Source: a virus (lineage: Duplodnaviria > Caudoviricetes). From it: 59,264 nucleotides of DNA. The DNA lies in the IMG/VR virus record IMGVR_UViG_3300036832_000931, positions 1-59,264 of that record. One strand, written 5' to 3'. The translations under genes and the position numbers were made by a program. Below are positions 1,253-59,264 of this stretch, piece after piece (the stretch's first letter is position 1; each line of letters opens with the position of its first letter). The notes beneath the pieces were generated by a model, which saw only the letters and a list, made by a program, of their open reading frames with translations, ran no database searches and was not told the origin of the DNA.

Positions 1253-1319
1253 TGTGTCCCCTCCCTTGTTGTTTCACCGCTACTGCGCGGGAACCCTTAC
1301 TCACATAAATTGTAGATGC

Positions 1320-1526
1320 TCATGCACCGCGGCGCTTCGTGCGGCGAGCTTCCTTATATTGTTTGCCGAGCGTGGACTGGCATTGCTTGCATTTATGCTG
1401 AAAGCCGCGTTGCCTATGCCGATAAAGCTCAAACGCGCTGGTCGGTAGAGTCTTCTTGCATTGATTGCACAGCCGCGTCGTCTCTGTGGAGTAGTCGTCC
1501 CAATTAAACTGGCCGAGATGTATCAT
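1320..1526 (-). CDS. Small zinc-finger protein (CxxC...CxxC)
   Basis: CNQC...F...CKQC pattern like the Zn fingers of HNH/EndoVII-type phage proteins; start overlaps the upstream stop. Confidence 0.55.
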   Translation of the reverse strand: MIHLGQFNWDDYSTETTRLCNQCKKTLPTSAFELYRHRQRGFQHKCKQCQSTLGKQYKEARRTKRRGA

Positions 1527-2647
1527 CTATATATACGCCGCTGCTGGTGCGGCTGACGCTTGTGATTCCACCCATGCGGGGCCTTGACCGCACTTACCGC
1601 AGTGGCACCGTTCTGTACGTTTACCGTGGTATACGCATCCGGCCACCCAATCGGCAGGTCATTCCCCTGCGACAATCCACACGTATAGGCCGTCGCTGTT
1701 AGGACATGGGTACCATTGTTGACCTTTACCGTCGTATCCCACATCCACGGCCCCTGCCCCGGACTACAGGTCAGAAAGCCCATGTCGCTGCTGAGACAAG
1801 CGTAAAAACACACACCAGGATTACCGGAATGTGCCAACTCTACCTTTACCTGACCAGAGACCGTCGTACCTTGTTTGGGACTGCTTATATACAGCGCCGG
1901 CAGCCACGGCTTCTCTGCCATCAGCTGATGTACCCGGTCGATATACGGTAGCGCCCCCTCGTCATACCAGTTACCGCTGTACCAGCTACCCAGACAGCCA
2001 TCACTCATCTCCTGCGCCGTACCGTTGGGATATTGCGGATAACCATGACCCGGAACCTTATCCCCGTAATACTTGATCTCCCCGTTCATACACGCCCGCC
2101 AGTACGAACCCCTGAAGTCGAGCGCGAACGGAGTGCTCTCATACGCCATCGGACACGCATTATAGTTGGTACATTTGATCTGAATTATGCTGTATGACGT
2201 GTAGCAGTAGCCTGCCGGTTGCCACGCATCAAAGCCGTTTCCTCCCGTACAGAGGTCGTGCTCGAACTCGTCGTCCCCCTTGACCGACTGATTCCACCCA
2301 CTCTCATTCCACGCCTGCGCCCTTAACTGCTCTACATCCATCCCCCACTTACACGCCGCCCACTGTATGACCTCGTCGGTGGTCCCCCTGAAGTTCCCAT
2401 CGACGCGAAAAAAGGAAGATGCCGGAGGACCATTAAATTGTAACGGGTTGGCGTAGAACGGCGCTAATTCCCCCGTCGTCGGTATCCGCTGATTGTAAGG
2501 ACTGTTCTGCCCCTTGGTCTCCGGCCGGGGCTGTACCTTGGCCGCACATTCCGCCCCCGACGGTAATGCCCCATTAGGCGGTACAAACTGTGCCCACGCT
2601 CCACTCGCGGTTAACAATAATACCGCGATTATCGCCAGTATCCTCAT
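1523..2647 (-). CDS. Secreted lytic-transglycosylase-like protein with C-terminal Ig-like domain (candidate endolysin)
   Basis: Likely start MRILAIIAVLLLTASGAWA (signal peptide, GGGGAGGG RBS); WAACKWG...RAQAWNESGW SLT-like Glu-Ser motif; ISSPKQGTTVSG...WDTT..NGTHVLTATAY Ig-like tail. Confidence 0.65.
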   Translation of the reverse strand: MRILAIIAVLLLTASGAWAQFVPPNGALPSGAECAAKVQPRPETKGQNSPYNQRIPTTGELAPFYANPLQFNGPPASSFFRVDGNFRGTTDEVIQWAACKWGMDVEQLRAQAWNESGWNQSVKGDDEFEHDLCTGGNGFDAWQPAGYCYTSYSIIQIKCTNYNACPMAYESTPFALDFRGSYWRACMNGEIKYYGDKVPGHGYPQYPNGTAQEMSDGCLGSWYSGNWYDEGALPYIDRVHQLMAEKPWLPALYISSPKQGTTVSGQVKVELAHSGNPGVCFYACLSSDMGFLTCSPGQGPWMWDTTVKVNNGTHVLTATAYTCGLSQGNDLPIGWPDAYTTVNVQNGATAVSAVKAPHGWNHKRQPHQQRRIYR

Positions 2648-2687
2648 TGCTGCCCTCCCCTTTGCCGAGCTTCGTTTCACCGCTTTA

Positions 2688-2864
2688 TTACGCGGGAACC
2701 TTGGTCTTACGCTCCTCGTCATTGATGCGCTGGTCTATACCCGCCATCCGGTACCCCAACTGATTTAAATACTTGTACAGCCGCAGACGCTGCAGCTCCC
2801 CCGCATCCTCCACCCACACCCTCATCAACTCCTCATCCGCCTTATCAATCTGCTGCCAGCTCAT
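2688..2864 (-). CDS. Hypothetical protein
   Basis: MSWQQIDKADEE... after a G-rich RBS; ends KVPA* with the stop inside a repeat-hairpin copy. Confidence 0.5.
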   Translation of the reverse strand: MSWQQIDKADEELMRVWVEDAGELQRLRLYKYLNQLGYRMAGIDQRINDEERKTKVPA

Positions 2865-2957
2865 AACGGCCCCCCTGCTTATTTTGTACTCCTCTACAGG
2901 GGCGGTGAAAATGAACGCTTGACTAATTGTGAGCGGAAGCTTAGAGGGTTGATGCAT

Positions 2958-3446
2958 GGTTCCTGCGTACTACGGCAGTGAAACTTATTCGGGTTCTCGC
3001 GTATCAGCGATGAAACCTTCGTCGACAATGTCACGGTTCCTGCGGTTGAGCAGTGAAACTCAGCGCGCTCCCGGCTCCTGCGTATCAGCAGTGAGACCCT
3101 TCGCTTTTGTTCATCGGTTCTCGCGTACCCAGCGATGAAACTTTTGAAACTGGATGGTTCCTGCGTGTTAGCAGTGAAACGCTTCCTGGGGCGGCGAACG
3201 GTTCTCGCGTATTCAGCGATGAAACTCGCAAGCTTAACTCCCCGGCTCCCGCGTACCGGCGGTGAGACCCTTCGTCGCTTATGGTTCCTGCGTTTGAGCG
3301 GTGAAACTGATGCCGACGCGAAATGTTCTACTCGGTTCCTGCGTGTTAGCAGTGAAACCCTGATCCAGTCAAAATGTCGGTTCTCGCGTACTTAGCGCTG
3401 AAACTGATGCGCGCCTCGATGGCTCCTGCGTTACCAGCAGTGAGAC
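2958..3446 (+). CRISPR. Compact CRISPR-like array: 12 truncated (25-27 nt) repeat hairpins with 7-26 nt spacers
   Basis: Copies start at 2958, 2992, 3035, 3073, 3116, 3156, 3200, 3244, 3283, 3334, 3379 and 3421. All match the 3' part of the 37-nt repeat beside the cas gene. Confidence 0.85.
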
Positions 3447-4028
3447 AGGGCTGGATATGCGTCGGGAATTGTTTGGCGCGTAGGGCTGAGGGAATGTACG
3501 CATATGCATATGCTCTCGAGAGGAAGGGCTAGGGGTGGGGTGGCTTAAGGTATCCCTACAAGCCTATAGGTACCATTCCCTGACTGACTAGGACTAGCAG
3601 ACTGAGACCTGACCGTTAGCTAGGCTAGCACAGGGTCAAGCTAACGTTTGCGGGGCTTTCGTGGCTTGTGTGCTTGGCTTGTGTCATCAGTCAGGTCAGC
3701 TAGGCAATCAATCAGATAGGTCTCAGGGAAGTGTCTACTCGAGTAGGTCCACAAAGCTAACCGGCTCCGTCTCAGGTTGATCCAACCTTGCCCTTGCCAA
3801 AAGCGCGCGCGATTGAGCCCACAGTTTCGTACGGATAAGAATTTCGCCACATATCAATATTAAACAGCAAGTTCGGTTTTCCTAATCTAACCTGACCCAC
3901 AACCTCGCGACATTTTTTGGTGCAAAAAAACGCGAGTGGGTTGACTGCAGGTTAATTATAGGCTTCCCTTATACTTTACTACCATTTACTATAGCTAGCG
4001 GTTCGACAAGCTTTTAGGAGATAAGGGA

Positions 4029-4355
4029 ATGACAAAAGGCGATCGGATAGTTGTTTTGACGGGTTCACAAGCGGGTCAGTCAGGCGAAGTGATCGAAGTA
4101 ATTGTGGATATGGTTAAGGTCCGCTTGTATGGACGAGAGGGGCTCACGATCGATTATGTCACTCCTACCGACAATGTGATGCTGCGCAGCTGCCTAGTTT
4201 GTGGCGATGCTGACCATCATGGGAATGAGCCCTGTTGCCCCGCATGTAGACATCACAACGCGTTGTTAGGTGCATATGCTGATCAGGGTCAGGTCTACCC
4301 GACGCGGGTCTTAAAATGCCGCGATTGCGGTTATGTCCAAGATATTCGGCGATAA
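4029..4355 (+). CDS. KOW-motif protein with Cys-rich C-terminus
   Basis: KGDRIVVLTGSQAGQSGEVIEV fits the KOW consensus; CLVC, CCPAC and CRDC motifs; strong AGGAG/TAAGGG RBS. Confidence 0.6.
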   Translation: MTKGDRIVVLTGSQAGQSGEVIEVIVDMVKVRLYGREGLTIDYVTPTDNVMLRSCLVCGDADHHGNEPCCPACRHHNALLGAYADQGQVYPTRVLKCRDCGYVQDIRR

Positions 4356-4385
4356 GGAGAGTTAAGGGACAATGACTAGAAGGAT

Positions 4386-4442
4386 GAGTGGACCCGGGGC
4401 AAGCCCCGGGTTTAAATGGCGGGTCAGGTCACAAGCCCTGAC
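4386..4442 (+). repeat. Two-hairpin intergenic element, copy 1
   Basis: GAGTGG-ACCCGGGG(CAAG)CCCCGGGT-TTAA...GTCAGG(TCACAAGC)CCTGAC; near-identical to 4729-4784. Confidence 0.8.
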
Positions 4443-4485
4443 AACTACAAGCTGACTGATAATCAATTTGTCGTAAGGAGACATC

Positions 4486-4722
4486 ATGGCAATCATCACA
4501 ACCGATTTTGTAGCGTACACAGCATCTAAAATGTTGGATAAGGCAAAGCGGAACTATCAACGCGCATTGACCAACCATAACAAGCAACAGTCAATCGGCG
4601 AAACTGATATGTCAGTCAAACAGACGAGACGTATGGCATTAGCAGTATCAGCATTGTCTCGAGCATCATTCCGCTTGCATGATTGCGAAAGGGTTATGTT
4701 GCGGTTGCTCAATCAGCGCTGA
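4486..4722 (+). CDS. Hypothetical protein
   Basis: 78 aa ORF with a TAAGGAG RBS. Confidence 0.6.
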   Translation: MAIITTDFVAYTASKMLDKAKRNYQRALTNHNKQQSIGETDMSVKQTRRMALAVSALSRASFRLHDCERVMLRLLNQR

Positions 4723-4728
4723 CCTGCA

Positions 4729-4784
4729 GAGTGGACCCGGGGCTCAACCCGGGTTTAATGCGCAGTCAGGTCACAAGCCCTGAC
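4729..4784 (+). repeat. Two-hairpin intergenic element, copy 2
   Basis: GAGTGG-ACCCGGG(GCTCAA)CCCGGGT-TTAA...GTCAGG(TCACAAGC)CCTGAC. Confidence 0.8.
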
Positions 4785-4825
4785 CAACGCAAAATTCAAT
4801 TTCCCGCTAAGTGAGGGAATCTGGA

Positions 4826-5554
4826 ATGAGACAAAAGGGTTTTATCAAGGGCGCGGGTATTCTCTATGAGAATAGCCAAGTTGTAGTTATTGCAACTGGG
4901 GCTAATGGGTCTCGTAAAAGCCGGAACGTTAAGACGGGTCACATGGCGCAAATCTGGATTCTAGTCAAAGCAGTAGACCCGGTCACTGCTGTTAAGACGG
5001 GGCTAGATAAAGCAGTTTGTTTCAATTGCCCCTATCGTGGCGATGAGGGGCTTGATCGGGCTTGCTACGTCACAACCTATGATCTTGCACGGGCTCCGGG
5101 TTCTATCTGGAAAGCCTACCGACGCAATCGCTACGAACACATCACAACCTCAGGTCAGATTGCCAAACTGTTTGGCGATGCTGCAGTCAGATTTGGGGCT
5201 TACGGTGAGCCCGTCTTAATTCCATTGCCAACCATCAAGGCGATAACTGAAGTGGCTAAAACTTGGACGGGTTATACGCACCAATGGAAGCGGGTCAAAT
5301 ATTTGGCTTATCGGCGTTATCTGATGGCTTCAACCTCAGAGACGGATTATCAGCAAGCCCAATCGTTGGGTTGGAGAACATTCTCAGTATCAGCAACAAC
5401 CCTGCAGGGTCAGATAGTTTGCCCTGCTAGTGCGGAACGGGGGCACAAGCTCAGTTGTGAAGAGTGCGGCTTGTGTGCCGGCACAACCCGGGTTGCTAGA
5501 AGCGTACAGATTGCCCCGCATGGGTCAGGGGCTAAATATGCTGCAGCTGCTTAA
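4826..5554 (+). CDS. Conserved Cys-rich phage protein (Gp88-like, possibly Fe-S binding)
   Basis: NVKTG...VCFNCPY...CYV...RFGAYGEP...WTGYTHQW...LMAS...GWRTF...CPAS...CEECGLC motif series. Confidence 0.6.
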   Translation: MRQKGFIKGAGILYENSQVVVIATGANGSRKSRNVKTGHMAQIWILVKAVDPVTAVKTGLDKAVCFNCPYRGDEGLDRACYVTTYDLARAPGSIWKAYRRNRYEHITTSGQIAKLFGDAAVRFGAYGEPVLIPLPTIKAITEVAKTWTGYTHQWKRVKYLAYRRYLMASTSETDYQQAQSLGWRTFSVSATTLQGQIVCPASAERGHKLSCEECGLCAGTTRVARSVQIAPHGSGAKYAAAA

Positions 5555-5735
5555 GCAGTTGCTCGAGACCCTGCAGGGTCCACTCTGCAGGGTGCTAAAG
5601 CCCCTCGCGATTTTTGGCGGGCCCGGGAAAAAAACATCGCCAGGGCTAAAAATGTCGCGAGGTTAAAAGCAAGATTTAAGCAAGCTGGCGGGACTTTTTT
5701 TTCTAAAGCAAGTTTTCTAATAAGGAGAGAGCAAG

Positions 5736-6167
5736 ATGTCAGTATCTATCAAACAGCAAGTGATCGAGTATCTCGAGCGCAACGGGTACAAGTTCGACCC
5801 GGGATATAAAGGGCACAAGTACCGTAAGCTGATCCATGATCGGTATGAACCGATCTACGTTGGCCACACGGGGGCATTTAGGAAGGGTTCTACCATCGCT
5901 GACAGCATCTCGATCACTGATAAGCTCAGAGCGCTGTTGAGCTTGCCGGCATACGGTGAGGCCGGGGCTTGCGAGACCTGTGGCAGCACCGGGTATCGGG
6001 TCAATGCTCGCGTTGCGCGTGCCGCCGGTATAGCGGGCAAGTTGGCTGGTAAGCAAGGTACTGGGAGCAAGTCAGAATGTACCCGCAAGATATATCGTGC
6101 CGGTTATATCCAGGCTTGCTCCATACCATACCATTTACTATATTGGTGTAGTTCGATTGATGATTGA
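5736..6167 (+). CDS. Hypothetical protein
   Basis: 143 aa ORF with a TAAGGAG RBS and the AGCAAG start-associated motif. Confidence 0.55.
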   Translation: MSVSIKQQVIEYLERNGYKFDPGYKGHKYRKLIHDRYEPIYVGHTGAFRKGSTIADSISITDKLRALLSLPAYGEAGACETCGSTGYRVNARVARAAGIAGKLAGKQGTGSKSECTRKIYRAGYIQACSIPYHLLYWCSSIDD

Positions 6168-6183
6168 TAAGGGAGATCAGCAA

Positions 6184-6462
6184 GTGAACAAGCAAATGAT
6201 CGCGAGGTTGTCTGAGGCTTTCGTTGCCGGGTTGCGGCAAGAACTGACGCCTGCTCAATGGGCGCTCATGGCGGAACGCAACCGCTCGGAACAAAGCAAG
6301 AATATCTGCCACAGTCACGATTTTACCGATGCAAATATGGTGATGTCTGCTGCTTTCGAGCAGGCCGGCATTCCGCTGTGGACCGCGGGCGGACATCTCA
6401 GTGAGCAATCGATGGAATTGTGGAATGCGGCGTGGGCCAAAGCGGCCGCGCAACTACGCTAG
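6184..6462 (+). CDS. Hypothetical phage protein
   Basis: GTG start after TAAGGGAGATCAGCAA; contains CHSHDFTDANMVM..AF. Confidence 0.6.
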   Translation: MNKQMIARLSEAFVAGLRQELTPAQWALMAERNRSEQSKNICHSHDFTDANMVMSAAFEQAGIPLWTAGGHLSEQSMELWNAAWAKAAAQLR

Positions 6463-6492
6463 CAAGTTTTTACGATAAGGGAGATCAGCAAG

Positions 6493-6651
6493 ATGACGAT
6501 CCAGATAACAGAATTCGCCACGCAAGTGGCGCTCAGATCCTATGGCGAGGTGCGCAAAGCCTATCGCCGATATAAAGCAGACTGCGATCGTCTCGATCGT
6601 ACCGATAGGCTTGTACAAGCCCACAGAGTTAGCCGACGCAATTGTCGATGA
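6493..6651 (+). CDS. Small hypothetical protein (52 aa)
   Basis: Hand-translated MTIQITEFATQ..., preceded by TAAGGGAGATCAGCAAG-ATG. Confidence 0.5.
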   Translation: MTIQITEFATQVALRSYGEVRKAYRRYKADCDRLDRTDRLVQAHRVSRRNCR

Positions 6652-6885
6652 TTATAAGCCCGCGACATAAGCAAGTTTGGCGCTTCAAGAGAGTAAAGCA
6701 AATGACAATATTTCAGACCAGCGACGGCTATAAGCTCTGGCAGCATACGAGCGGAGACGGGCAAGTGGTATGGCGTGACAAGCCCTCCGGGGATCCCGAT
6801 TGGGATCTTGAGTTTGGCGATGATAAGGGTCACCCGATTGACGACCTGGGTGAACCGCTCGAGGGCTCCTTTGTGAGTTAAAAGC

Positions 6886-7056
6886 ATGACGCGGTTAACG
6901 ACATTAATCGAGATAGCGCTCGGCATCCTGGTCGTTGTGCTGGGTATTCAGGCACCAATATGGATGAACCTCGTCAGACTAAACGGGCAAGTTGCCCAGA
7001 TGGGGGTTCAAGTGTCGCAAATAAACAGCAAGATTGACCAGTTGAATCGTCAATAA
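6886..7056 (+). CDS. Small membrane-anchored coiled-coil protein (56 aa)
   Basis: Hand-translated MTRLTTLIEIALGILVVVLGIQAPIW...VSQINSKIDQLNRQ. Confidence 0.45.
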   Translation: MTRLTTLIEIALGILVVVLGIQAPIWMNLVRLNGQVAQMGVQVSQINSKIDQLNRQ

Positions 7057-7095
7057 AGCGTGAAGAGCAAGTTTCCCATTAAGGAGGGAGGCAAG

Positions 7096-7257
7096 ATGTT
7101 CTACCTCAATATCAAGTCTATATCGCCACCGTTCTACCAGATGCGGTTGTATCGTACCTCGCGGCAACTGTATCAGGTGCAGTTCGAGAACGGTGCTGCA
7201 ATCACCGTCACTGATACCGGTCGCATCGTTGCGCTGGTATATGGGCAAAGCAAATGA
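7096..7257 (+). CDS. Small hypothetical protein
   Basis: ATG after TAAGGAGGGAGGCAAG; stop overlaps the DUF29 start (ATGA). Confidence 0.5.
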   Translation: MFYLNIKSISPPFYQMRLYRTSRQLYQVQFENGAAITVTDTGRIVALVYGQSK

Positions 7258-7712
7258 AGGACTATCACGCATGGTTGCTGGAACAGGCTGCGGCGCTGCG
7301 CCGCCGTGACATCGAAGCGCTCGACTGCGACGAGCTGGCTGAGGAGGTGGAGGGGATGGCAAGGACCGCGCGCCACCATATAAAAGTGGGACTAAGAACG
7401 ATCCTCGAACATCTAAGCAAGCTGGCGTACAGCAAGCCTACCCATCGCCTGTGGCGCGCAGCTATCAGCCGCTCCCGCGATACTATCAAGCTGCTGCTCG
7501 AAGAGTCACCAGGGCTCAGACAGTACCTCGATGAATATAGAGTCAAAGGCTATCGCCGCGCTCGTCGTCTGGCCGGTGAGTCCTTGGGCTGGGAACGCAA
7601 GCAATGGGAAGCCAACCTCCCAGCCGAGTGCCCGTGGACGCTCGAGCAGATCCTTGATGAGGATTTCTTCGCCGACGGTGACAATGACGGCGACTGGATC
7701 CCGATATTTTAG
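7254..7712 (+). CDS. DUF29 family protein
   Basis: DYHAWLLEQAAALR...LD..ELAEEVE...ILEHL.KL...LLEESPGLR...CPWTLEQILDEDF. Confidence 0.85.
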   Translation: MKDYHAWLLEQAAALRRRDIEALDCDELAEEVEGMARTARHHIKVGLRTILEHLSKLAYSKPTHRLWRAAISRSRDTIKLLLEESPGLRQYLDEYRVKGYRRARRLAGESLGWERKQWEANLPAECPWTLEQILDEDFFADGDNDGDWIPIF

Positions 7713-7731
7713 CCGATAAGGAGAACAGTAA

Positions 7732-7899
7732 TTGAGCGACGTCGCCACCAAAAACGATCTGCGCGAGCTCGAAGCGCGGCTCGAGAGCAGCCTCAAAAGC
7801 ACTATCATCAACACCATGATCGCGCTCACCGCCATTTATGGCGGAATTACCGCCGTCGCGATCACCGTATTGACGCTCGTATTCAAGAAAGTAATTTAA
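7732..7899 (+). CDS. Small DUF1640-like membrane protein (55 aa)
   Basis: TTG start after TAAGGAG; VATKNDLRELEARL followed by a hydrophobic helix. Confidence 0.55.
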   Translation: MSDVATKNDLRELEARLESSLKSTIINTMIALTAIYGGITAVAITVLTLVFKKVI

Positions 7900-7901
7900 G
7901 T

Positions 7902-8129
7902 TTGCAAACCCCAACCGATTTGGATTATTTACTACAACAAGTTACTGGCATGGATAAGGACGTATTTTCTAATAAGGGAGAATGCCCGTTGGACATGGAT
8001 TCTTTCAACGCTGAAACGACGGTCATACTGTCCAAGATCTTCCGCCACTACCTTCGGTGGACCATCGGGTCAATGGTCGCAATCGCCAGCATTGCCTTGG
8101 TTATAGCGAAGATATTATGGAACCACTAA
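7902..8129 (+). CDS. Small membrane protein (true start probably further downstream)
   Basis: C-terminal hydrophobic helix WTIGSMVAIASIALVIAKILW; internal TAAGGGAG RBS. Confidence 0.45.
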   Translation: MQTPTDLDYLLQQVTGMDKDVFSNKGECPLDMDSFNAETTVILSKIFRHYLRWTIGSMVAIASIALVIAKILWNH

Positions 8130-8326
8130 AAATGACCGCGGCTGAACACGTCTGGGTTGAGCAGCAGCTGGCCGAGACCCGCAAGTTTATTGCGGAGCAA
8201 AACAAGCTGAACGCCGAACGGCAAAAGTCTGAGCGGGTATGGTGGTGGGTGCCGTTTATTCTGGTCGCTGGGAATATCGTGCTGAGTGCTCTGATCGGTG
8301 CCCTCGTGGGGCACTTCGTCAAATAG
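8057..8326 (+). CDS. Small coiled-coil plus membrane protein (start uncertain)
   Basis: LAETRKFIAEQNKLNAERQK followed by WWWVPFILVAGNIVLSALIGALVG. Confidence 0.5.
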   Translation: MDHRVNGRNRQHCLGYSEDIMEPLKMTAAEHVWVEQQLAETRKFIAEQNKLNAERQKSERVWWWVPFILVAGNIVLSALIGALVGHFVK

Positions 8327-8394
8327 TTACGTCATGAAGAGAGTCAGCAGGTCTGATTCCTCATCGTCAGTGATTTTCAGGTAGGTCAGCATCG

Positions 8395-8541
8395 ATGCGG
8401 TCGGAGCTCTGGAGAGTGTTGTTAGCGTTTGTGCTCGGTGTAGCCGTGTTCTGCGGTGCGGTGTTCGTCGTCTCGCACTGGATACTGCCAGCACCGGCTC
8501 ATCAGGAGATCTACGTTCATATCTATCACGATAAATCGTGA
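8395..8541 (+). CDS. Small membrane protein (48 aa)
   Basis: Hand-translated MRSELWRVLLAFVLGVAVFCGAVFVVSHWIL... Confidence 0.4.
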   Translation: MRSELWRVLLAFVLGVAVFCGAVFVVSHWILPAPAHQEIYVHIYHDKS

Positions 8542-8559
8542 GGAGAGAAATACTATAAA

Positions 8560-51717: not shown

Positions 51718-51759
51718 ATTAATTTACTGCTTTCAGTTTCACTGCAATTACGCAGGAAC

Positions 51760-52530: not shown

Positions 52531-52588
52531 AGTTCGCTCTCCTTATGATCACGATATATTCAGTTTCACCGCCAGTACGCGGGAACCT

Positions 52589-53701
52589 TTATTTACCTGC
52601 CGCGGACGAGGGTGAGGTACCAACCTGCACGCTCGTACCACCACCGCCTGACGCGGTACTCAAGCCTTGTCCCAGATCACTGAGAGCTTGTAGTGGCCAG
52701 TTCGCCTGCCCAGTCAGATTCTGATACGCCGTGTTGAGGACGTTCTGCGCCTGCTGTTGGCCTGTAGCACCAGATTGCATGAGTTGTTGCGGAACCTGAT
52801 ACATCGCGTTGGTCAGTTGCGGAGCCATCTGACCGGCATTCTGCGCCGCCTGTAGCTGCTGACCGTAGATGTTGCCAGCCTCCTGCATGCCCTGGCCGTA
52901 CAGGCTTGTAGCATTCCCCATCCCTTGCCCTAACAAGCTGGCGGCAGTACCGAGACCTTGCCCGTACATGTTCGCCGCGGTGTTCATGCCCTGCCCCAAC
53001 ATGCCGGTAGTTGCGCTCAGATTTTGCGCATAAGCAGGCTCATAAATGCCCGCCGCGAGATTACCTAGGCCCTGACTGAGTGCGTTCTCGGCATTGCCGT
53101 AAGCCTGCGCCTGACCTGCGCTGCCGAGCGTACCGGTCTGCGCAGCGTTCTGGAGGATACCGGGAGCAACCGTTTGCTGGAATTGCTGGGTGAGCGGCTG
53201 TGCCGCAGCATTGAAGTATTGTTGCAGGTACTGATTGTCCGATGGGTTCATCAACCCACCGCCCATGATGTTGGAAGCCATACCCGCACCTGCCTGCTGG
53301 TACTGGTTGGCTAGGGCGTTTTCATTACCGAGCTGTCCGACCGCATTACCGGTAATCGCGTTCTGATTACCAAGTTGGCCGATCGCGTTATTCATCAGCG
53401 CGTTCTGCCCACCCAGATTACCAACGGCATTACCGGCGATGGTGTTTTGCCCGCCGATCGCGTTGCCGGCGTTGGCACCGATCATCTGCTGCTGATTGGC
53501 GGCATTGCCGAGGAAGTTCTGCGCCCAGGGGGTTATCTGGGAGACGAGGTCCATGCCCTGCTGCTGCTGCTGTGTCAGCGGAGCTATTTGTTGGTAGGGA
53601 GTCATCTCCATACCGACTTGGGGAGGAGCAACGCCGCCACTGCCTATCGATCCACCGGCCTGATTAGCTGACACGGTTACCCCGCAAGTTGGTAGTTTCA
53701 C
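52589..53701 (-). CDS. Gln/Gly/Asn-rich DNA ejection (pilot-like) protein; true start likely slightly downstream
   Basis: PYQQIAPLT..QQ.G...NQYL...; G/N/Q/A repeats typical of podovirus ejection proteins. Confidence 0.6.
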   Translation of the reverse strand: MKLPTCGVTVSANQAGGSIGSGGVAPPQVGMEMTPYQQIAPLTQQQQQGMDLVSQITPWAQNFLGNAANQQQMIGANAGNAIGGQNTIAGNAVGNLGGQNALMNNAIGQLGNQNAITGNAVGQLGNENALANQYQQAGAGMASNIMGGGLMNPSDNQYLQQYFNAAAQPLTQQFQQTVAPGILQNAAQTGTLGSAGQAQAYGNAENALSQGLGNLAAGIYEPAYAQNLSATTGMLGQGMNTAANMYGQGLGTAASLLGQGMGNATSLYGQGMQEAGNIYGQQLQAAQNAGQMAPQLTNAMYQVPQQLMQSGATGQQQAQNVLNTAYQNLTGQANWPLQALSDLGQGLSTASGGGGTSVQVGTSPSSAAGK

Positions 53702-53723
53702 CGCTCATACGCGGGAACCTTGT

Positions 53724-54182
53724 TTATACTTTCGCTGTTATCGTCACCCAGGTCGCCGACCAGCCAAATTTACGAGCGAAGGCTTTTGCGCGACGCGGGC
53801 GCGTAACCCACGTAATCTCACTAGTTCCGTAGACTGTTTTAGCGATATTAGCAATATGGTTCCATACACTAGCTACCACCGCCGGCATATGGTCGTCTGG
53901 TAGCCACTCTCGCATCGGGATGTTCCAGGCACACCAGACAAACAACTCTGGCTCATAGTTAAAGATGCGTTGCTGCTTGGAATAGACTAGGAAACCCAAC
54001 ATACGCTCGTCGCGACGAGCCATGACACAGTTAACCTGTGCCCCTTTCATCGCTGCATAAAGGTCTTCCGGGAGCCAGTTGGGTTGCATGTCGCGCTTTA
54101 CATCGAGCATCCCACGCAACAAAAAGGGCCAGAAGTGGTGGAGCTCCTCTGGCTTTAACTCGATTAATTCAGTTCGCGACAC
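53724..54182 (-). CDS. Hypothetical protein (possible GNAT-like fold)
   Basis: W.PEDLY......GFLV......LFVW.AW; upstream of the ejection genes. Confidence 0.55.
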   Translation of the reverse strand: MSRTELIELKPEELHHFWPFLLRGMLDVKRDMQPNWLPEDLYAAMKGAQVNCVMARRDERMLGFLVYSKQQRIFNYEPELFVWCAWNIPMREWLPDDHMPAVVASVWNHIANIAKTVYGTSEITWVTRPRRAKAFARKFGWSATWVTITAKV

Positions 54183-54807
54183 CGCTGTTCGATAGCTTGC
54201 TCAAGACGTACGACTGCGGGTCGGTGTTTTTACTCGGCGTCTTCAGATAATCGTTGATCTGCTGCATCAACTTCATTTGTTCAGGGGTGTATCCACCTTT
54301 GTTCCCCTTCGTCCAATCTGAGGTCTTGAACATGCCGCCACCGCGGATGTACTCCTGAGCCTGCACCTGCCGCAGAAAACGATCGTAACTCCTCATATTA
54401 CTGTGCGGCGATAAGTCGTAGGGCTGAGGCTGATCTGCCGCCATCGATTCCGCCAAACCTTTTACATAAACCTGCCGTGCGCTGGCGTGCTGTTCCGGCG
54501 TCATCGACTTGATGAACTGCTCCGTGAAGCCCTGATACGTGGGATCGGTGGCTTGCAGCCAATGGAGCGACTCGAGACCGAGCGTTTCCGGCCAGCTCGA
54601 AGGATCGGTCAGGGGTTTGTTGCCCCGCAATTGAACGTGCCAGTTATCAGGTGTCGGATTGCCCTCCTCGCCAGGAGGGTATGTTTCGCTCCAGTCCTTG
54701 CCCGTCCCTTTGCTCATCTTCACGTCCCAGTTTGCGAGCCGGGGCCACTGCTGCTTAGCCTGGGCTATAGCTGCATCAAACGCACCCTGATCGTTTTCAT
54801 CGTTCAT
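54169..54807 (-). CDS. Hypothetical protein
   Basis: ORF starting just after repeat copy 54810-54834. Confidence 0.55.
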   Translation of the reverse strand: MNDENDQGAFDAAIAQAKQQWPRLANWDVKMSKGTGKDWSETYPPGEEGNPTPDNWHVQLRGNKPLTDPSSWPETLGLESLHWLQATDPTYQGFTEQFIKSMTPEQHASARQVYVKGLAESMAADQPQPYDLSPHSNMRSYDRFLRQVQAQEYIRGGGMFKTSDWTKGNKGGYTPEQMKLMQQINDYLKTPSKNTDPQSYVLSKLSNSGVAN

Positions 54808-54834
54808 AAGTTTCACTGCCGATACGCAGGAACC

Positions 54835-55494
54835 TCAATCATCATCGTCGTCTACGTCGTATCCGCCGTCACCGATATTTCGCGGTTTGCTCCAGATCAT
54901 CTCTGACGGTCTGATCACCTTGCCCACCGCCTCACCATCATCAAGCGGCAGCAGACCGAAATGCGCCAGCCCCTCAGCTTCGTCGGCACAGTCAGCGTCA
55001 TGCTGCTTATCCATATAATCGAGGCGCTCGAGCACTTCGCGCATATGCTGGTTCATGATGTTGAGCCGCTCGCTGAGCTGCGACACAGTACGCATCGCTT
55101 CAACCACCTCATCGGTGTGAGCGACTAGATGGGCGAATTTACTTTCGTCACGCACGAGAGCACCCCGCATATCCGTAATCTGACTAAGCACCAGTGCCAT
55201 AAAGTCCGGCCACTGCGCAGCCATCGCGGCGTAGCTGTTCTTGCCGTTCGCGAGCTGACGGATGCGGGCTACTACCGCACGGGTCCAGAGCATCGCCTGC
55301 GGATCGAGGTCGCCGGTCTGTGCCCACAACTCCTTGGTATCGAGATTGGCCGGTATCAGATCGACCGGGGGATGGTAATTATCGCAGCCCTCGATGGCAC
55401 GGGCACCATAGGTAGGTACCCCTTGTTGATCCCTGCGGAGGATTCCCCAGGGGTGTGATTTGCCGCATACGCATGGCCTCATTTCATCTTTCAT
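54835..55494 (-). CDS. Hypothetical protein
   Basis: 219 aa; GAGGTGG RBS; TGA abuts a repeat copy. Confidence 0.6.
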   Translation of the reverse strand: MKDEMRPCVCGKSHPWGILRRDQQGVPTYGARAIEGCDNYHPPVDLIPANLDTKELWAQTGDLDPQAMLWTRAVVARIRQLANGKNSYAAMAAQWPDFMALVLSQITDMRGALVRDESKFAHLVAHTDEVVEAMRTVSQLSERLNIMNQHMREVLERLDYMDKQHDADCADEAEGLAHFGLLPLDDGEAVGKVIRPSEMIWSKPRNIGDGGYDVDDDDD

Positions 55495-55697
55495 AAAACC
55501 ACCTCTACTTCATCTTATAGTCACATGCTCGATCTCCCGATAATTCTCACCCAAGATAAACCGCATACAGTCACAGCCCCTTTCCCGGCATACCCCTTCC
55601 TCGTCCTGATGCAGCATCCGAGTGTGACCGCAGAGGCAGAACTGCTGATGCCATACGCTGGCACAATGCGGTCTGCGTGAGATTCGTTTCACTGCCA

Positions 55698-55967
55698 TTA
55701 CGCAGGAACCCCAAATAACTCCCCCTGGCGAGCGGGTTCGCATTGATGCTTGCGAATAATGCGAACAATGTGCGGGCGCATGGCATCCGGATACACGGCG
55801 AAACAGTGCGTACCCTTACCGTTGGTCTTCTCGCGAAGCTCCTTGGGTGGCAGTTCGCCGTGGATGGAGAACCACAGATCCCGTGTCTCTTCACCGACCG
55901 CCCAGGAGAGATTGGGAGTGATGTCCACCCTCTCTTCACGCATGACATCAATCACTGTGATGCTCAT
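55698..55967 (-). CDS. Hypothetical phage protein
   Basis: ITVIDVMRE...WAVG...GELPPK.LREKT.G.GTHCFAVYP; ends GVPA* inside a repeat copy. Confidence 0.6.
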   Translation of the reverse strand: MSITVIDVMREERVDITPNLSWAVGEETRDLWFSIHGELPPKELREKTNGKGTHCFAVYPDAMRPHIVRIIRKHQCEPARQGELFGVPA

Positions 55968-56116
55968 GGTCTTCCCCGTTCCGTTTCACTGCTCTAAACG
56001 CAGGAACCTTACGGTTCGTACGTAACGGCGGTGAAACAAGAGAAGTTTCACTGCTAGTACGCAGGAACCGCCGCCTCATCGTTTCACCGCCCGTACGCGG
56101 GAACCCGTACTGCCGC

Positions 56117-56536
56117 TTACACCACGACGATGCTGTCCGATGGTGGGGCGGCGGTGGAGCCGAGTGCGTTGGTGGCGGTAACCACGCAGGTCGCAGTTTT
56201 GCCCACATCATCGCTTACAATCGTATAGTCCGCGGCATTGGTACCGACATCGGTCCCGTCCAATTGCCACTGGTAAGCGTAGAAGGTGGGTACGCCCACC
56301 CATTCGCCCATTGTGCAGTGCAGCACACTGCCGCTCTGCGACACGTGCGGCACTGTCGTGTTAACGGGAGCACCGGCGGGGTAATTACGCTCCATCAGGT
56401 ATTGGCTGGTTTCTTCGGCATAGCTGAACACTCGCCAGCCGTAGTGCCCGAGGTCATTGACCTCATCGAGCGTAGTTGACCACCGGTATTCATATCGATC
56501 CGGCAGTGCCGTACCTTTTGTTTCTGCTCTTGCCAT
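56117..56536 (-). CDS. Ig-like domain protein
   Basis: PVNTTVP......L.CT.GEW.G.PT.YAYQW..DG...YT....DVGK...C.VTATN..GS. Confidence 0.7.
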   Translation of the reverse strand: MARAETKGTALPDRYEYRWSTTLDEVNDLGHYGWRVFSYAEETSQYLMERNYPAGAPVNTTVPHVSQSGSVLHCTMGEWVGVPTFYAYQWQLDGTDVGTNAADYTIVSDDVGKTATCVVTATNALGSTAAPPSDSIVVV

Positions 56537-56627
56537 GATTTACCTTTTTCGCTGAACCTCAGTGTTTCACTGCCACTACGCAGGAACCTTGCTTTGGATT
56601 ATAGTTTCACTGCCCAAACGCAGGAAC

Positions 56628-58274
56628 CTACCCAGCCATCCAACTACCACCAGAATCAGCACCTCTATTACCAAATGGACTACCACCATACTCCGCATCC
56701 CCGCGGTAGCGCCTCGGCCACACAATATTAAGGGCCGGATCGAACAGGCGGCTCAAAGCGTCCAGCATGTCTCGCTGTTTGGGATTGTACGGCCATAACA
56801 AAAACTCATCATTAATAAAGTGCTGCACCAAGTCGACTTCGCTGCCGTCTTTCAGCTTTTTCTTGATGCCGTCTTTAGGAAAGAGAATGCGCCGGTCACG
56901 GAAGGGAGGGATCAGCCAACCGATGCGGCCGTCTTTAGACATGCCGCCGGACAATTGTACGATCGTAAACATCTGGTTGAGTTCGCGCATACGGAAGTGG
57001 AAGTGCTCGATGTCGCACTGCATCCCGTATTTCTCGTAACCAACCTTCAGCGGATCCCAGCGGGTCACCGCCTGGAACACCGCCTCCCAGCGCTCCTCAA
57101 GATCCAGCTTGTCGCAGATCACGTCACAAATCCGAACGCGCTTGTCTGCTCCAAGCGCTACCACCCACAGGGCGAAGCGGCTGTTGCTGTCGGGATTATT
57201 GCCGGCCGGATCGACCAAGACGTATTTGTTCATGCCGGTGAGCGAGTCGTCCTTGGCGTCCCAGTAATCCAGCCACTCGTGGCTGAAGCCAACCTCGTGA
57301 GGATCCTTCGCCTGACTCGGGTCGAGCAGAATCTGCAGGGCGAAGACCTTGGGGGACAGGGCGGATTTGAAAAAGGAGAACTTCTCATCGCTCAGATAAG
57401 CGGGCTGATGATTCTCATCAAACGGTCCACGCAGCCTGAGCTTGCCCACTCTGCGCTTGATCAACTCGCTGGTCGTATCGCCAAACTCCTGAAAGGTCGC
57501 GATGTATCTGAAGATGGGCGGGTCGGAGGCGGTCAGCAGCAGCGAGTTATCAAACTGCTCGGTAGTGGTGGCGATCATCAGGGTCGAGGTCTGATCCCGC
57601 GCCACGACATCATCATATATAAGGCGGCGGTAGCGCTTGCCGACCGGCTGTCCATCGACCAGACCCCACGCCTCGATGGTGGCCTCTTTGGGATTACCCT
57701 TGCGCTTGACGGTGATGCCGTCATTCTCGCCCCAGCTTACCGAGGCGGTGCGGCACTCATGTTTGGGATCCTGCCACAAGACATCATCGAAGAGATCCTT
57801 GAGGAGCTGGTTGGTTTCGAATTCCCGCTTGATCAGGGTCAGGAAGTCCTTGGCCATCGGGCGGGTATGGCTGAAGAAACCGAACGTCACCTCGGGATCA
57901 TTGAGGATATCCTGAATGGTCAGCCCGAAGGTGATGATCTCGGATTTGTACGACTCGCGAGGCCACAGGTCGAGGTGATTATTGGGATTCTCTTGGACCT
58001 CAGTGCAGCGTTTAAAAGTCCAGCGAGTCTTTCGCTCGTCCGCCAGGAAATGCTTGCGGTTGAGAAGATAGACCAGCAGAAAGAAGAGATCGTGTTGTCC
58101 CAACCAGCGCAGATGATCACGGCGCATCGGGGCGGAACAGTTGCGGGTTTCCGTCCACCACCACTGGGCATTAGCCGGCGAGGTGGAGCGGTGCAGCGGT
58201 GGATGTTCGGCGCAGGCGTTGGTCTTGCGCAGTGCGCCGATTAAATCCTCAAAGCCGTTACCCCGTTTAGGCAT
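56628..58274 (-). CDS. terL: Terminase large subunit
   Basis: PRESYKS (Walker A variant), G.R...LIYDD (Walker B), VDPA nuclease motif, K..RI..L.P, DMLDALS. Confidence 0.9.
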   Translation of the reverse strand: MPKRGNGFEDLIGALRKTNACAEHPPLHRSTSPANAQWWWTETRNCSAPMRRDHLRWLGQHDLFFLLVYLLNRKHFLADERKTRWTFKRCTEVQENPNNHLDLWPRESYKSEIITFGLTIQDILNDPEVTFGFFSHTRPMAKDFLTLIKREFETNQLLKDLFDDVLWQDPKHECRTASVSWGENDGITVKRKGNPKEATIEAWGLVDGQPVGKRYRRLIYDDVVARDQTSTLMIATTTEQFDNSLLLTASDPPIFRYIATFQEFGDTTSELIKRRVGKLRLRGPFDENHQPAYLSDEKFSFFKSALSPKVFALQILLDPSQAKDPHEVGFSHEWLDYWDAKDDSLTGMNKYVLVDPAGNNPDSNSRFALWVVALGADKRVRICDVICDKLDLEERWEAVFQAVTRWDPLKVGYEKYGMQCDIEHFHFRMRELNQMFTIVQLSGGMSKDGRIGWLIPPFRDRRILFPKDGIKKKLKDGSEVDLVQHFINDEFLLWPYNPKQRDMLDALSRLFDPALNIVWPRRYRGDAEYGGSPFGNRGADSGGSWMAG

Positions 58275-58364
58275 TTACCTGATTCTCTTCAAGCGTTTCA
58301 CTGCCGGTTACGCAGGAACCTAACCTTCACTCATCGCTTCGTTTCACTGCCGATACGCAGGAAC

Positions 58365-58901
58365 CTAGTCTATTTTCTCAGCGAGTTTTTCGTCCTCCGC
58401 TGCCAGCTCCTTCAATAATTCACTCATCGCCTCGGGATGGTTACGCAAAGCGCGTTCGATCCGCTCAATCGCCCAGCGCGGGATCCCGCTGGCGTCATGG
58501 CCCATCTCGCGGCGTACCTTGACGATGGAGTCGAGGATACCGCGCAGCGTATCGAGCGCCGACAGGACTAACTTCTCGTCAACGGTAAAGCTCTGTACGT
58601 GCTGCTGGAGGTGAGGATCCCAGACCTTGAGTGCTGATTTACTGTGCTTGGCCCGCCACACGCACATCCGTCCCTCTTGCCAGAGATCGACGAAGCGCTC
58701 GTGAATGTCCGCCCAGTCGAGCTGTTTGCCGTTACGTACCGCGGCGCGGAGCTGGTCACCTTTTATCTTGATGGCGCGGACAGGAGCTTTGGGCGGCGGC
58801 TGCTGACGGAACTTCTCCGCCGTATATTCGTTCGGGACCAGATGCTTTTCAGGTGGCTGCGGCAGCTTGTAGCCGTCTTTTTGTGTTAGTTCGTCAGCCA
58901 T
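58365..58901 (-). CDS. Candidate terminase small subunit
   Basis: Position directly upstream of terL; helical, 178 aa. Confidence 0.45.
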   Translation of the reverse strand: MADELTQKDGYKLPQPPEKHLVPNEYTAEKFRQQPPPKAPVRAIKIKGDQLRAAVRNGKQLDWADIHERFVDLWQEGRMCVWRAKHSKSALKVWDPHLQQHVQSFTVDEKLVLSALDTLRGILDSIVKVRREMGHDASGIPRWAIERIERALRNHPEAMSELLKELAAEDEKLAEKID

Positions 58902-59264
58902 ACGATGCCCGACCTTGTTTCATCGCCAGTTTACGCGAGAACCTCGAGATTACGTCCGTGTTTCATCGCTAATACGCGAGAACCTTTGTTTCGAAACAAA
59001 CTCGGCGTTTCACTGCCTGTACGCAGGAACCTTTAACTTAAGCGCGCCCGTCGGGTTTGTTTCGAAACGTGGGGGTGGATACGTCGTCGCCGGATCTCCC
59101 GACGCACCATTCCCCGGCGGGCGCAAGCTTTATCATCTCATATTGATCCACCATCAGTGAGCATTATAGCCTCCCCAATGTTTCACTGCCGATACGCAGG
59201 AACCTAGCCGTTCGTCAGAAGTTTCACCGCCCTGACGCGGGAACCCTAGCTATGTAGGATGTTG

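Follow-up and report, generated by a model that had tools for sequence, protein, structure and literature searches.

Why should a phage scatter the repeat handle of its own CRISPR-type effector through its genome? The question is raised by a soil phage whose entire 59,264-bp record (hereafter, the window) carries 72 copies of a 25-29-nt hairpin, GGTTC-stem-loop-stem-TGAAAC, as counted with a covariance model: 11 in an array beside the cas gene (11432-12003), 12 in another array (2958-3446) and 49 dispersed, with 32 copies on the plus strand and 40 on the minus strand. The preliminary description had put the total at about 69 (11, 12 and about 46); both array counts stand, while the dispersed count rises to 49 and the total to 72. 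A looser two-half scan of the window yielded 73 candidates, of which 71 were kept as the training set of the model and two (42021-42043 and 52163-52189) were rejected as poor matches with no hairpin. Run unfiltered over the window, the model returned 76 hits at E<=10; the 72 copies score 29.1-42.4 bits and the next hit 9.8 bits. Since the 71 training copies match the model by construction, the informative parts are this gap of about 19 bits and the one copy found beyond the training set (41845-41879). The strict pattern GGTTCCYGCG-N4-8-GCRGTGAAAC matches the window 50 times (19 on plus, 31 on minus), never when reversed (0/0), and gave a mean of 0.00 and a maximum of 0 matches in 100 dinucleotide-preserving shuffles. 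The abundance of the motif thus withstands the covariance-model and shuffle check suggested beforehand.

The first array adjoins the gene of the candidate effector, and the gene itself bears three copies of the handle, in its 5' UTR, internally and at its stop codon, which sits in the loop of the first repeat.

10026-11444, plus: 472-aa Cas12m-family gene (product P0001), from sequence and fold
9971-9996, plus: handle, candidate autoregulation site, 29 nt upstream of the cas12m ATG (37.2 bits)
10677-10705, plus: handle of 29 nt with a long loop, in frame within the cas12m coding sequence (GSCVTTSSET; 32.5 bits)
11418-12003, plus: array A, 11 handles, 3 units with the full 37-nt repeat, gaps of 47, 35, 49, 39, 42, 22, 14, 17, 15 and 11 nt (covariance model)
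2958-3446, plus: array B, 12 minimal handles, gaps of 7-26 nt (covariance model)

Judged by sequence and predicted fold, P0001 is a compact Cas12m-family protein. It shows the RuvC residues D234, the E of IALEDM and D424, together with a CxxC...CxxxH zinc finger. A profile of 28 homologues matches PDB 23vw_A 'Cas12m' (E 1.1e-54), the best PADLOC model is Cas12u1 (E 3e-33), and the best four Foldseek hits of the AlphaFold model (pLDDT 86.2) are Cas12m2 and GoCas12m (E 7e-19 to 7e-14); profile, PADLOC and Foldseek evidence therefore agree with the Cas12m-like assignment of the preliminary description. We searched the 3' end of the homologue gene at 38 metagenome loci. In 24 of these (9 distinct sequences), a GGTTC...TGAAAC hairpin begins in the last codons, and the stems differ yet pair (CTGC/GCAG, CCCC/GGGG, CCGC/GCGG, ATCC/GGGT, TCCC/GGG, ACC/GGT). 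On this comparison, the hairpin is the conserved handle of this Cas12m-family group.

The conserved unit corresponds to the 3' 25-26 nt of the 37-nt repeat, and the 5' GTTGCAGTNGA part is kept in only three array units (11418, 11491, 11627). Both the comparison of repeats and the homologue loci bear out the first proposal that the dispersed copies represent the 3' handle belonging to the cas-side repeat. The handle consists of a bulged hairpin of 7 bp between flanking GG and AC. In the alignment, pairing holds in 98.9% of 448 cells; pair 7-22 is UA in 34 copies, CG in 27 and UG in 3 but never CA, which the scan would have accepted. The covariation score was reached by 0/500 shuffles, although covariation inside one genome could in part reflect copying from a few master variants, not independent compensation. 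Column entropy is 0-0.4 bits in stem and flanks, 1.1-1.9 in the loop and 1.7-2.0 outside the handle. According to PMC10442227, the ordered scaffold helix of the Cas12m2 structure spans -23 to -2, the 5' 7 nt being disordered, and Cas12m2 cuts pre-crRNA upstream of the scaffold; PMC11013384 describes Cas12m processing as Mg-dependent and RuvC-independent. On that structural account, the dispersed phage unit equals the ordered scaffold core of Cas12m2.

The dispersed copies follow transcription: 45/49 are sense to local transcription (P of >=45/49 under 0.5 = 4e-10), a bias that holds across several strand switches, and exactly four (9341, 15955, 33337, 56013) are antisense, as the preliminary description had it. 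They also favour gene junctions. Among the 45 sense copies, 34 are non-coding (14% of random 25-mers), 13 have an upstream stop codon within -1 to +4 nt (0.6%) and 21 a start codon 2-35 nt downstream (4%), nearness to stops and starts being partly a consequence of location in short intergenic gaps, and the counts resting on gene models of which some start codons were hand-chosen and 4/66 fail a frame check. In 7 copies the first G completes a TAG stop. Ten copies are fully intragenic, and these are the weakest scorers (29-34 bits). Sixteen late genes (22369-35408) have no sense handle. The other dispersed handles, besides the two at the cas12m gene given above, are listed below as located with the covariance model.

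1271-1295, minus: sense, ATG at 1252 is 18 nt downstream
2674-2700, minus: sense, ATG at 2647 is 26 nt downstream
9341-9365, minus: antisense, within a rightward gene block
15955-15979, plus: antisense, within the integrase gene (15891-17099, minus)
17152-17176, minus: sense, stop overlaps first base, integrase start 52 nt downstream (42.0 bits)
17684-17709, plus: sense, start at 17721 is 11 nt downstream
20866-20890, plus: sense, stop overlaps first base, next start 16 nt downstream
21800-21824, plus: sense, overlaps the DNA methyltransferase gene at its 3' end, the gene's stop codon being the TGA in GTGAAAC
21883-21907, plus: sense, start at 21927 is 19 nt downstream
33337-33361, plus: antisense, intergenic, in the leftward late operon
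36565-36589, minus: sense, major head protein start (36532) 32 nt downstream (42.4 bits)
36789-36814, minus: sense, stop overlaps first base
37089-37114, minus: sense, stop overlaps first base, next ATG 14 nt downstream
37391-37416, minus: sense, within gene 37114-38169
38188-38254, minus: sense pair (38229-38254, 38188-38212), 16-nt gap; stop 1 nt before the first, ATG 18 nt past the second
39562-39587, minus: sense, immediately past a stop codon
40081-40105, minus: degenerate sense handle, 3' end of gene 40058-40561, next ATG 22 nt downstream (31.6 bits)
40580-40605, minus: sense, ATG at 40561 is 18 nt downstream
41105-41129, minus: sense, within gene 40789-41316
41328-41353, minus: sense, immediately past a stop, next start 11 nt downstream
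41646-41879, minus: three sense handles (41845-41879, 41704-41729, 41646-41672) within long ORF 41354-42064, of which only 41354-41614 is an accepted gene; coding status uncertain
44763-44787, minus: weak sense handle within the 1232-aa gene (29.2 bits)
47910-47934, minus: sense, within the 1232-aa gene
49519-50515, minus: three weaker sense handles (49519-49544, 50120-50145, 50491-50515) within the 941-aa gene (30.5-34.2 bits)
51736-51760, minus: sense, stop overlaps first base, ATG 18 nt downstream
52563-52587, minus: sense, stop 1 nt before, ATG 32 nt downstream
53695-53719, minus: sense, stop 4 nt before, GTG 20 nt downstream (42.1 bits)
54810-54834, minus: sense, immediately past a stop, ATG 2 nt downstream
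55686-55710, minus: sense, within ORF 55571-55948
55983-56105, minus: three sense handles (56081, 56045, 55983) and one antisense (56013-56037, plus)
56564-56628, minus: sense pair following the large terminase gene, whose stop overlaps the first; ATG 27 nt past the second
58295-58365, minus: sense pair, stop overlaps the first, large terminase ATG 20 nt past the second
58917-59245, minus: five sense handles heading the late operon (59221, 59180, 59007, 58960, 58917); the ATG at 58901 is 15 nt downstream of the last, 58917

From orientation, position and hairpin covariation, we infer that the phage transcriptome may itself be a substrate of the effector. We give somewhat less than an even chance to the reading in which the protein binds to phage mRNAs at their handles, perhaps also cleaving there, and thereby controls their translation or stability. 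The 49 dispersed and 12 tandem minimal handles would be transcribed within phage mRNAs and bound co-transcriptionally by the Cas12m-family protein, as repeats in pre-crRNA are, and its guide channel would then take up the 17-20 nt that follow each handle. For about 21 handles those nucleotides would include the next gene's ribosome-binding site or start codon, so that binding, perhaps accompanied by a cut immediately 5' of the handle, could set the translation or stability of the downstream cistron. The cas12m mRNA would be controlled likewise, through the handle in its 5' UTR and the one inside the gene. In the 13 cases where a stop abuts the handle, a ribosome terminating there would need to open the hairpin, coupling upstream and downstream genes. 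Among the models offered earlier, processing or stabilisation of mRNA and binding-based control would fit best, the handles lying between a stop and the next ribosome-binding site. That minimal handles lack the full repeat's 5'-terminal 11 nt counts against this reading, as do the ten intragenic copies. Should cleavage by the protein fall at the handle's 5' edge, moreover, the 7 TAG-completing copies would leave upstream mRNA without a stop codon, which is hard to reconcile with simple beneficial processing.

The only relative found, contig L135 (portal 55% identical, proteins 40-78% identical), is syntenic with window 58235-33985. Compared for handle motif and gene junctions, it has no handle hit above 10 bits and lacks the handle-type junction sequence of the window; its junctions are tight (17/23 measure -49 to +15 nt), and the window has 42 handles over the same span. 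Together with the 16 late genes that lack a sense handle, this indicates that handles are dispensable for the late gene module, a further point against control of phage mRNAs through them. Their absence from L135 also suits a selfish or neutral expansion, improbable in our estimate, in which units spread by recombination, slippage or mobilisation and persist, with no phage function, where they do least harm (intergenic, sense). Array B, lying where leftward and rightward genes diverge, resembles a triplicated four-handle unit, several copies are identical, and the weakest are intragenic, as decaying copies should be. No target-site duplications accompany the copies, however (>=3 nt in 1/72 against a shuffled mean of 1.8), and a Y1 transposase was not found in the window; immobile neutral copies should decay evenly, whereas variation falls only in loops and in stem pairs that compensate, with 19 columns of stem and flank nearly invariant, and tolerance alone does not predict the strand bias across several strand switches. 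That another reader, a host RNase, the ribosome or another phage protein, uses the hairpin and the CRISPR-like array merely shares it seems very unlikely to us. Stabilisation or processing of operon mRNAs at intercistronic hairpins is indeed common, REP elements and T7 RNase III sites being examples, but the hairpin at the 3' end of the homologue gene has the same fixed GGTTC...TGAAAC flanks in unrelated contigs, regardless of genomic context, the end of the dispersed unit coincides exactly with the end of the crRNA scaffold, and the cas gene itself bears three copies.

Two further explanations concern guides and decoys. As a distributed guide source, each handle and its next 17-20 nt would become a crRNA sending Cas12m to DNA, either to homologous genes of handle-less co-infecting relatives or to the phage's own genes as a lysogeny brake. 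A handle followed by downstream sequence is the type V crRNA layout; 10.64898/2026.04.20.719267 reports that, in a different type V system of phage, interference needs no more than a single repeat with 18 nt, and PMC10442227 gives a 17-bp heteroduplex as the Cas12m2 optimum. We nonetheless hold this distributed array, also raised in the preliminary description, to be quite unlikely. Spacers and pseudo-guides have no >=14-nt match elsewhere in the window beyond chance level; pseudo-guides match their own locus only, and there the PAM position is filled by the GAAAC end of the handle, as protects the arrays of relatives. Many inter-handle gaps measure only 7-22 nt, and many 7-16 nt, intergenic sequence diverges fast, and the one relative lacks such junctions. 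Gaps of 7-22 nt in the distal part of array A and in array B, too short for useful guides, would suit decoys, handle RNAs that load and neutralise the Cas12m of a host or competing element or else buffer the protein of the phage itself, in effect RNA anti-CRISPRs on a mass scale. PMC11013384 has Cas12m silencing by stoichiometric binding, not cutting, so that titration would work, and in PMC10651486 solitary repeats serve phages as anti-CRISPRs, type V-A included. Two MAGs hold orphan two-handle mini-arrays with a 37-nt repeat almost the same as the phage's. We still consider decoys unlikely: the phage encodes the cognate protein, which would be titrated too, and decoys need no register with stop codons and ribosome-binding sites. 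Moreover, none of 185,579 species-representative genomes has more than two copies or an array of this handle, and the two mini-array MAGs, which are incomplete, show no close Cas12m homologue.

A search of the literature found no published description of genome-wide handle dispersal, in line with the earlier statement that no case was known. Handle dispersal is not unique to this phage: all four other Cas12-like phage records tested have 2-5 solitary handles, and contig L055 has a copy scoring 40.8 bits, which lies 330 nt away from its homologue gene (48% identity) and on the opposite strand.

The strict pattern GGTTCCYGCG-N4-8-GCRGTGAAAC, which describes the handle (the 25-29-nt hairpin GGTTC-stem-loop-stem-TGAAAC forming the 3' part of the 37-nt repeat beside the cas gene), was matched 50 times in the window, as against a mean of 0.00 in 100 shuffles, and the reversed strict pattern, used as a control, was not matched in the window at all. 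A looser scan yielded 73 candidates; we discarded two that lacked a hairpin and built a covariance model from the other 71. Run unfiltered on the window, this model gave 72 matches at 29-42 bits and none between 29 and 10 bits. The 71 training copies match by construction, the independent results being the clean score gap and one extra copy at 41845-41879. The 72 handles (32 on the plus strand, 40 on the minus strand) consist of 11 after the cas gene, 12 in a second array (2958-3446) and 49 dispersed copies. The preliminary description had counted about 69 by hand, and its counts and coordinates proved right.

Aligned, the copies fold into a 7-bp stem with one bulged U and with GG and AC flanks; 98.9% of 448 cells are paired. 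Both members of the pair vary at three positions of the stem: 3-27 (UA 59, CG 5), 6-23 (CG 54, UA 5, GC 3) and 7-22 (UA 34, CG 27, UG 3), at the last of which C-A was permitted by the scan and was never present. The covariation score of the stem was reached by 0 of 500 shuffles and slid structures pair at 37-54%, a result to be read with the possibility that copies in the same genome inherit their pairs from few master copies. Stem and flank columns vary little (entropy 0-0.4 bits), in contrast to the loop (1.1-1.9 bits) and to the positions immediately beyond the unit (1.7-2.0 bits); the conserved unit is therefore exactly the 25-26-nt hairpin.

The linear window (59,264 bp) is the whole IMG/VR record, with an estimated completeness of 63%, and PHROG and Pfam matches identify it as a temperate tailed phage. 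Besides the genes listed here, it encodes a RecT-like protein, an exonuclease, a DNA methyltransferase and a primase/AAA_25 protein (PHROG/Pfam). The late operon runs leftward, beginning at the right end.

Integration and late-operon genes of the window
15891-17099, minus strand, integrase (PHROG/Pfam)
25543-31052, leftward, tail fibres, late operon
35426-36571, leftward, major head protein, late operon
42065-44296, leftward, portal, late operon
56628-58274, leftward, large terminase, late operon

The GenBank phage collection yielded no close relative of the window, whether searched with 8.7 kb by megablast or by tblastn with P0001, the Cas12m-like product of the cas gene. The stretch 50000-59264 was traced to two soil DNA runs, one of which may be its source, and to no RNA run. 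The AcrIII-1-like label earlier attached to the 215-aa ORF at 8560-9207 (+) is unsupported, with no Pfam match at E<=0.001 and no PHROG match at E<=1e-5.

The placement of the dispersed handles was assessed on 66 hand-curated gene models, four that failed the frame check being removed or corrected. Forty-five of the 49 are in sense orientation. Of the sense copies, 34 lie in non-coding sequence, or 31 should the long ORF 41354-42064 prove real, as compared with 14% of random 25-mers; 10 are wholly intragenic, and the remaining one runs over a gene end, providing that gene's stop codon. An upstream stop lies within -1 to +4 nt of the handle in 13/45 cases (0.6% at random) and a start codon 2-35 nt downstream in 21/45 (4% at random), a closeness that is in part a consequence of location in short gaps. 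In seven of the 13 stop-abutting cases, TAG is completed by the handle's first G; between handle and downstream start there is usually a purine-rich ribosome-binding site, and two handles 36-47 nt apart are a frequent arrangement at junctions. One handle precedes the ATG of the cas gene by 29 nt, and another lies in frame within its coding sequence. No sense handle was found across 22369-35408 (16 gene models). The 61 extra cognate handles lie between stop codons and ribosome-binding sites, with a precision close to one base. In L135, a related phage contig whose late operon is syntenic with 58235-33985 of the window (proteins 40-78% identical), the late operon has no handles and its genes are closely packed, with 17 of 23 junctions in the range -49 to +15 nt; gaps such as those of the window are therefore not ancestral.

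P0001 (472 aa; ORF 10026-11444, plus strand) passed the Pfam model Cas12f1-like_TNB (42.4 against a cut-off of 26.3), remained below the cut-off of the TnpB family model NF040570 guided_TnpB (66.8 bits against 100) and was far under those of the IS607_TnpB and IS200_TnpB models. Its homologues numbered 43 by word-indexed search and 1,410 by exhaustive search (E<=0.001), those about 50% identical being P0002, P0010 and P0013, on contigs of 10.7, 25 and 46 kb; as a query against viral contigs it gave no match. A 28-sequence profile of P0001 matched 23vw_A ('Cas12m') in the PDB at E 1.1e-54 and UnCas12m4a at E 2.2e-30, the top PADLOC model was Cas12u1 (E 3e-33), and Foldseek with the predicted model (pLDDT 86.2) placed Cas12m2 and GoCas12m at ranks 1-4, with Cas12f and TnpB after them. 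The D-E-D RuvC triad is retained (D234, the E of IALEDM, D424); published Cas12m proteins with this triad nevertheless bind DNA and do not cut it (PMC11013384). The model predicts a single helical REC of three helices and ~70 residues. Between RuvC-I and RuvC-II, ~50 residues present in 26 of 27 aligned homologues are absent, a gap (P0001 residues about 290-300) common only to P0022. As modelled, P0001 is nearer in size and layout to TnpB than to published Cas12m. Neither Cas1 nor a match to a Y1_Tnp transposase was found in the window, a record 63% complete. The first repeat encodes, in its 5' part (11418-11444), AVAVEVPA, a conserved C-terminal peptide that is modelled with confidence as a beta-strand; protein and RNA may therefore both constrain these 24 bases.

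The first handle (11432-11457) spans the cas stop codon (11442-11444). A GGTTC...TGAAAC hairpin starting within the final codons of the homologue gene was present at 24 of the 38 loci of relatives; these terminal hairpins comprise nine distinct sequences, in which the stems vary and complementarity is kept. Judged from these sequences, the handle and the P0001-type protein belong together. In Cas12m2, cleavage falls upstream of the scaffold; the scaffold helix is ordered from -23 to -2, and the seven nucleotides at the 5' end show no order (PMC10442227). The dispersed unit corresponds to this ordered scaffold core. Relatives with regular arrays were found at L059, L060 and L096, and relatives with one handle and one guide at L057, L061, L064, L068 and L071.

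Single terminal handle and guide start in bacterial relatives (30-33% identity)
L061, 2973-3015
L064, 11561-11600
L068, 11561-11600
L071, 2638-2680
L072, 5394-5436
L090, 532-575

By analogy, the bacterial single-handle relatives look like fixed-guide, TldR-like regulators; no target site for their conserved guide was found in those loci. The guide start conserved among them is CTSTAYTTYTGGCR. At L064, the homologue gene converges on genes for a CusA/AcrB-type pump (Pfam ACR_tran, E 8e-222) and a CusB-like fusion protein (HlyD_D23, E 1e-70).

Array A (11 handles, 11418-12003, plus strand) retains the 37-nt repeat in only 3 of its 11 units; the near-canonical units come first and the gaps shrink from 47 to 11 nt, the last ones measuring 22, 14, 17, 15 and 11 nt. 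Tandem Repeats Finder reported no array here. In array B (12 minimal handles, plus strand) the gaps are 7-26 nt. Cas12m2 works best with a heteroduplex of 17 bp (PMC10442227); if about 17 bp is needed, the short array gaps leave too little room for guides. At E<=1, the phage collection contained no protospacer for array A spacers, and the first 22 nt of spacer 1 had no match in viral contigs. Array B aligns as three four-handle units, the fourth handle of which is always the GGCTCC...GTGAGAC variant; this recurrence suggests growth by segmental duplication, not by spacer acquisition.

Solitary handles outside arrays were present, at 2-5 each, in 4/4 other Cas12-like phage records tested (G001, G005, G006 and G007, the source records of L029, L026, L050 and L044), with reversed controls at 0; these counts are lower bounds because the search patterns fixed the loop. 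They lie far from the arrays of their records, and in G001 the cas gene is flanked by two short-spaced arrays with a period of about 46-75 nt. On 126 fetched loci, the covariance model R1, fitted to the window's handle, gave weak or terminal matches (6 and 4) and a dispersed case only at L055, a 4.9-kb contig carrying the closest homologue with flanks (48% identical). There, a 40.8-bit copy (2385-2409, minus strand) lies 330 nt upstream of the gene on the opposite strand, and the terminal handle looks degraded by its sequence. The exact handle pattern occurred in viral contigs in one single-copy stretch only. In 185,579 species-representative genomes it occurred in 50 stretches, mostly single and by estimate near chance, none with more than two copies, and no array bearing this handle was found among these genomes beyond two-handle mini-arrays in two MAGs.

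Two-repeat mini-arrays with almost the complete 37-nt repeat of the window
L147, 1355-1466, MAG contig
L170, 160-260, MAG contig

These MAGs are an uncultured proteobacterium and a Binataceae bacterium, and the last repeat of their mini-arrays lies 33-65 nt upstream of a ribosome-binding site and ATG. No close Cas12m was found in either genome, both being incomplete. The MAG loci L147, L170 and L137 have the handle alone in common with the window.

We compared the window with Type V-M systems (MmCas12m2, GoCas12m, MsCas12m and PmCas12m; PMC10442227, PMC11013384, bioRxiv 10.64898/2026.03.26.714355). It resembles them in that the closest sequence and fold matches of P0001 are Cas12m, that its triad is that of several non-cutting Cas12m (PMC11013384) and that a repeat-derived hairpin scaffold stands immediately 5' of the guide, without Cas1; as in other phage Cas12-like loci, the repeat terminates in stem and AC. 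Type V-M effectors also process their own pre-crRNA and bind DNA in a PAM-dependent way without cleaving it, traits for which P0001 offers only its D-E-D residues for comparison. In contrast to Type V-M proteins of about 600 aa with REC1/REC2 lobes that hold the guide-target duplex, P0001 has 472 aa and one ~70-residue REC; array A is irregular, with 3/11 full units, whereas Type V-M arrays have regular ~36-nt repeats and ~30-38-nt spacers; the first repeat overlaps the cas stop codon, and the window has another 61 minimal handles beyond array A. A 2026 preprint (10.64898/2026.09.14.751636) describes an array-associated Cas12m of 610 aa from a myxophage as the first in a phage; dispersed repeats are not mentioned in the passages covered. 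Like TnpB/omega-RNA (OMEGA) and the RNA-guided repressors derived from TnpB, TldR (PMC10705468), P0001 combines TnpB size with a RuvC plus zinc-ribbon core. The handle overlaps the gene 3' end as in TnpB/OMEGA, and in the manner of fixed-guide regulators the bacterial relatives have one handle and a conserved guide; unlike TnpB/OMEGA, the window has no transposon ends or TnpA, and its handle measures 25-37 nt as against a scaffold of >100 nt. Elements between cistrons that process or stabilise RNA include T7 RNase III sites, REP hairpins and engineered Csy4/Cas12a sites. The window handles are likewise short, between cistrons, co-oriented with transcription and many per genome; unlike these elements, the hairpin is recognisable as the handle cognate to a CRISPR effector from the same genome, and we found no published natural case of this.

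The anatomy of the handles, including ribosome-binding sites in guide position, points to RNA as the molecule acted on, in cis: P0001 would bind handles on phage mRNAs, perhaps cutting there. Simple 5' cleavage is disfavoured by the stops that overlap the handle. In its furthest form, this reading would have about 45 minimal crRNA handles in phage mRNAs, each with the next gene's ribosome-binding site in the Cas12m guide position, and one protein would set the translation of some 20-30 cistrons, its own included. Upstream ribosomes would evict it via the stop codons abutting handles, making handle and protein a CRISPR-derived substitute for translational coupling. In our estimate it is possible rather than probable that this miniature CRISPR effector, together with its repeat, now serves the temperate phage as a post-transcriptional switch across the genome. 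DNA-level protein sites such as stoperators, and replication or packaging signals, were rejected, since the stem covaries and the orientation follows the gene strand; intrinsic terminators were rejected for want of a U-tract after the stem.

Four rivals to regulation by P0001 remain. The most plausible is that the handles are decoys: like Racrs (PMC10651486) and standalone cr-like repeats in cas loci (bioRxiv 10.1101/2023.03.03.530964), they are single repeat-like hairpins outside arrays in a phage, one of them just upstream of the cas gene as in autoregulatory cr-like RNAs. Racrs, however, are host-repeat mimics, few per genome and transcribed as small RNAs from dedicated promoters (PMC10651486), whereas the window handles match the phage's own effector in 49 plus 12 copies, are in register with stops and starts and lie within operons, positions that argue against separate small RNAs. 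A selfish repeat ranks next. The marks of a REP/MITE-like mobile repeat were not found: target-site duplications of >=3 nt occur at 1/72 handles (shuffled mean 1.8), the window has no Y1 transposase match, and none of the 50 matching genome stretches has more than 2 copies. Less plausible again is a factory of guides made from each handle and its pseudo-guide, the sequence directly 3' of it; neither the pseudo-guides nor array A spacers had another match within the window. Last comes the possibility that something other than P0001 reads the handles.

CRISPR effectors are known for guided binding or cutting of foreign nucleic acid, and to our knowledge the only described roles of repeats outside arrays are those of a few decoys or autoregulatory elements. 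Regulation by P0001, if true, would give phage Cas12m an RNA-regulon function, and the phage would be a natural example of a Cas protein that, by reading these handles, organises gene expression across an entire viral genome. Such regulation would also provide a very small RNA-binding module for operon control (472 aa, 25-nt site) and a testable model for the origin of handle-only units from TnpB-like single-guide ancestors, and would call for caution in pipelines that label such copies 'solitary repeats' or anti-CRISPRs. The literature searches, and the passages of papers that they covered, yielded no account of cognate handles spread through a genome.

A promoter and terminator scan of 1-20000 remained below shuffle level. 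The 818-aa tail-fibre gene contains a 192-nt tandem duplication (27115-27498, minus strand; 1.9 copies, 76-78% identical). Next to the major head protein gene, on its upstream side, two handles enclose an unusually long non-coding gap of 200 nt (36590-36788); this gap has TTGACT-like words and could be an internal late promoter.
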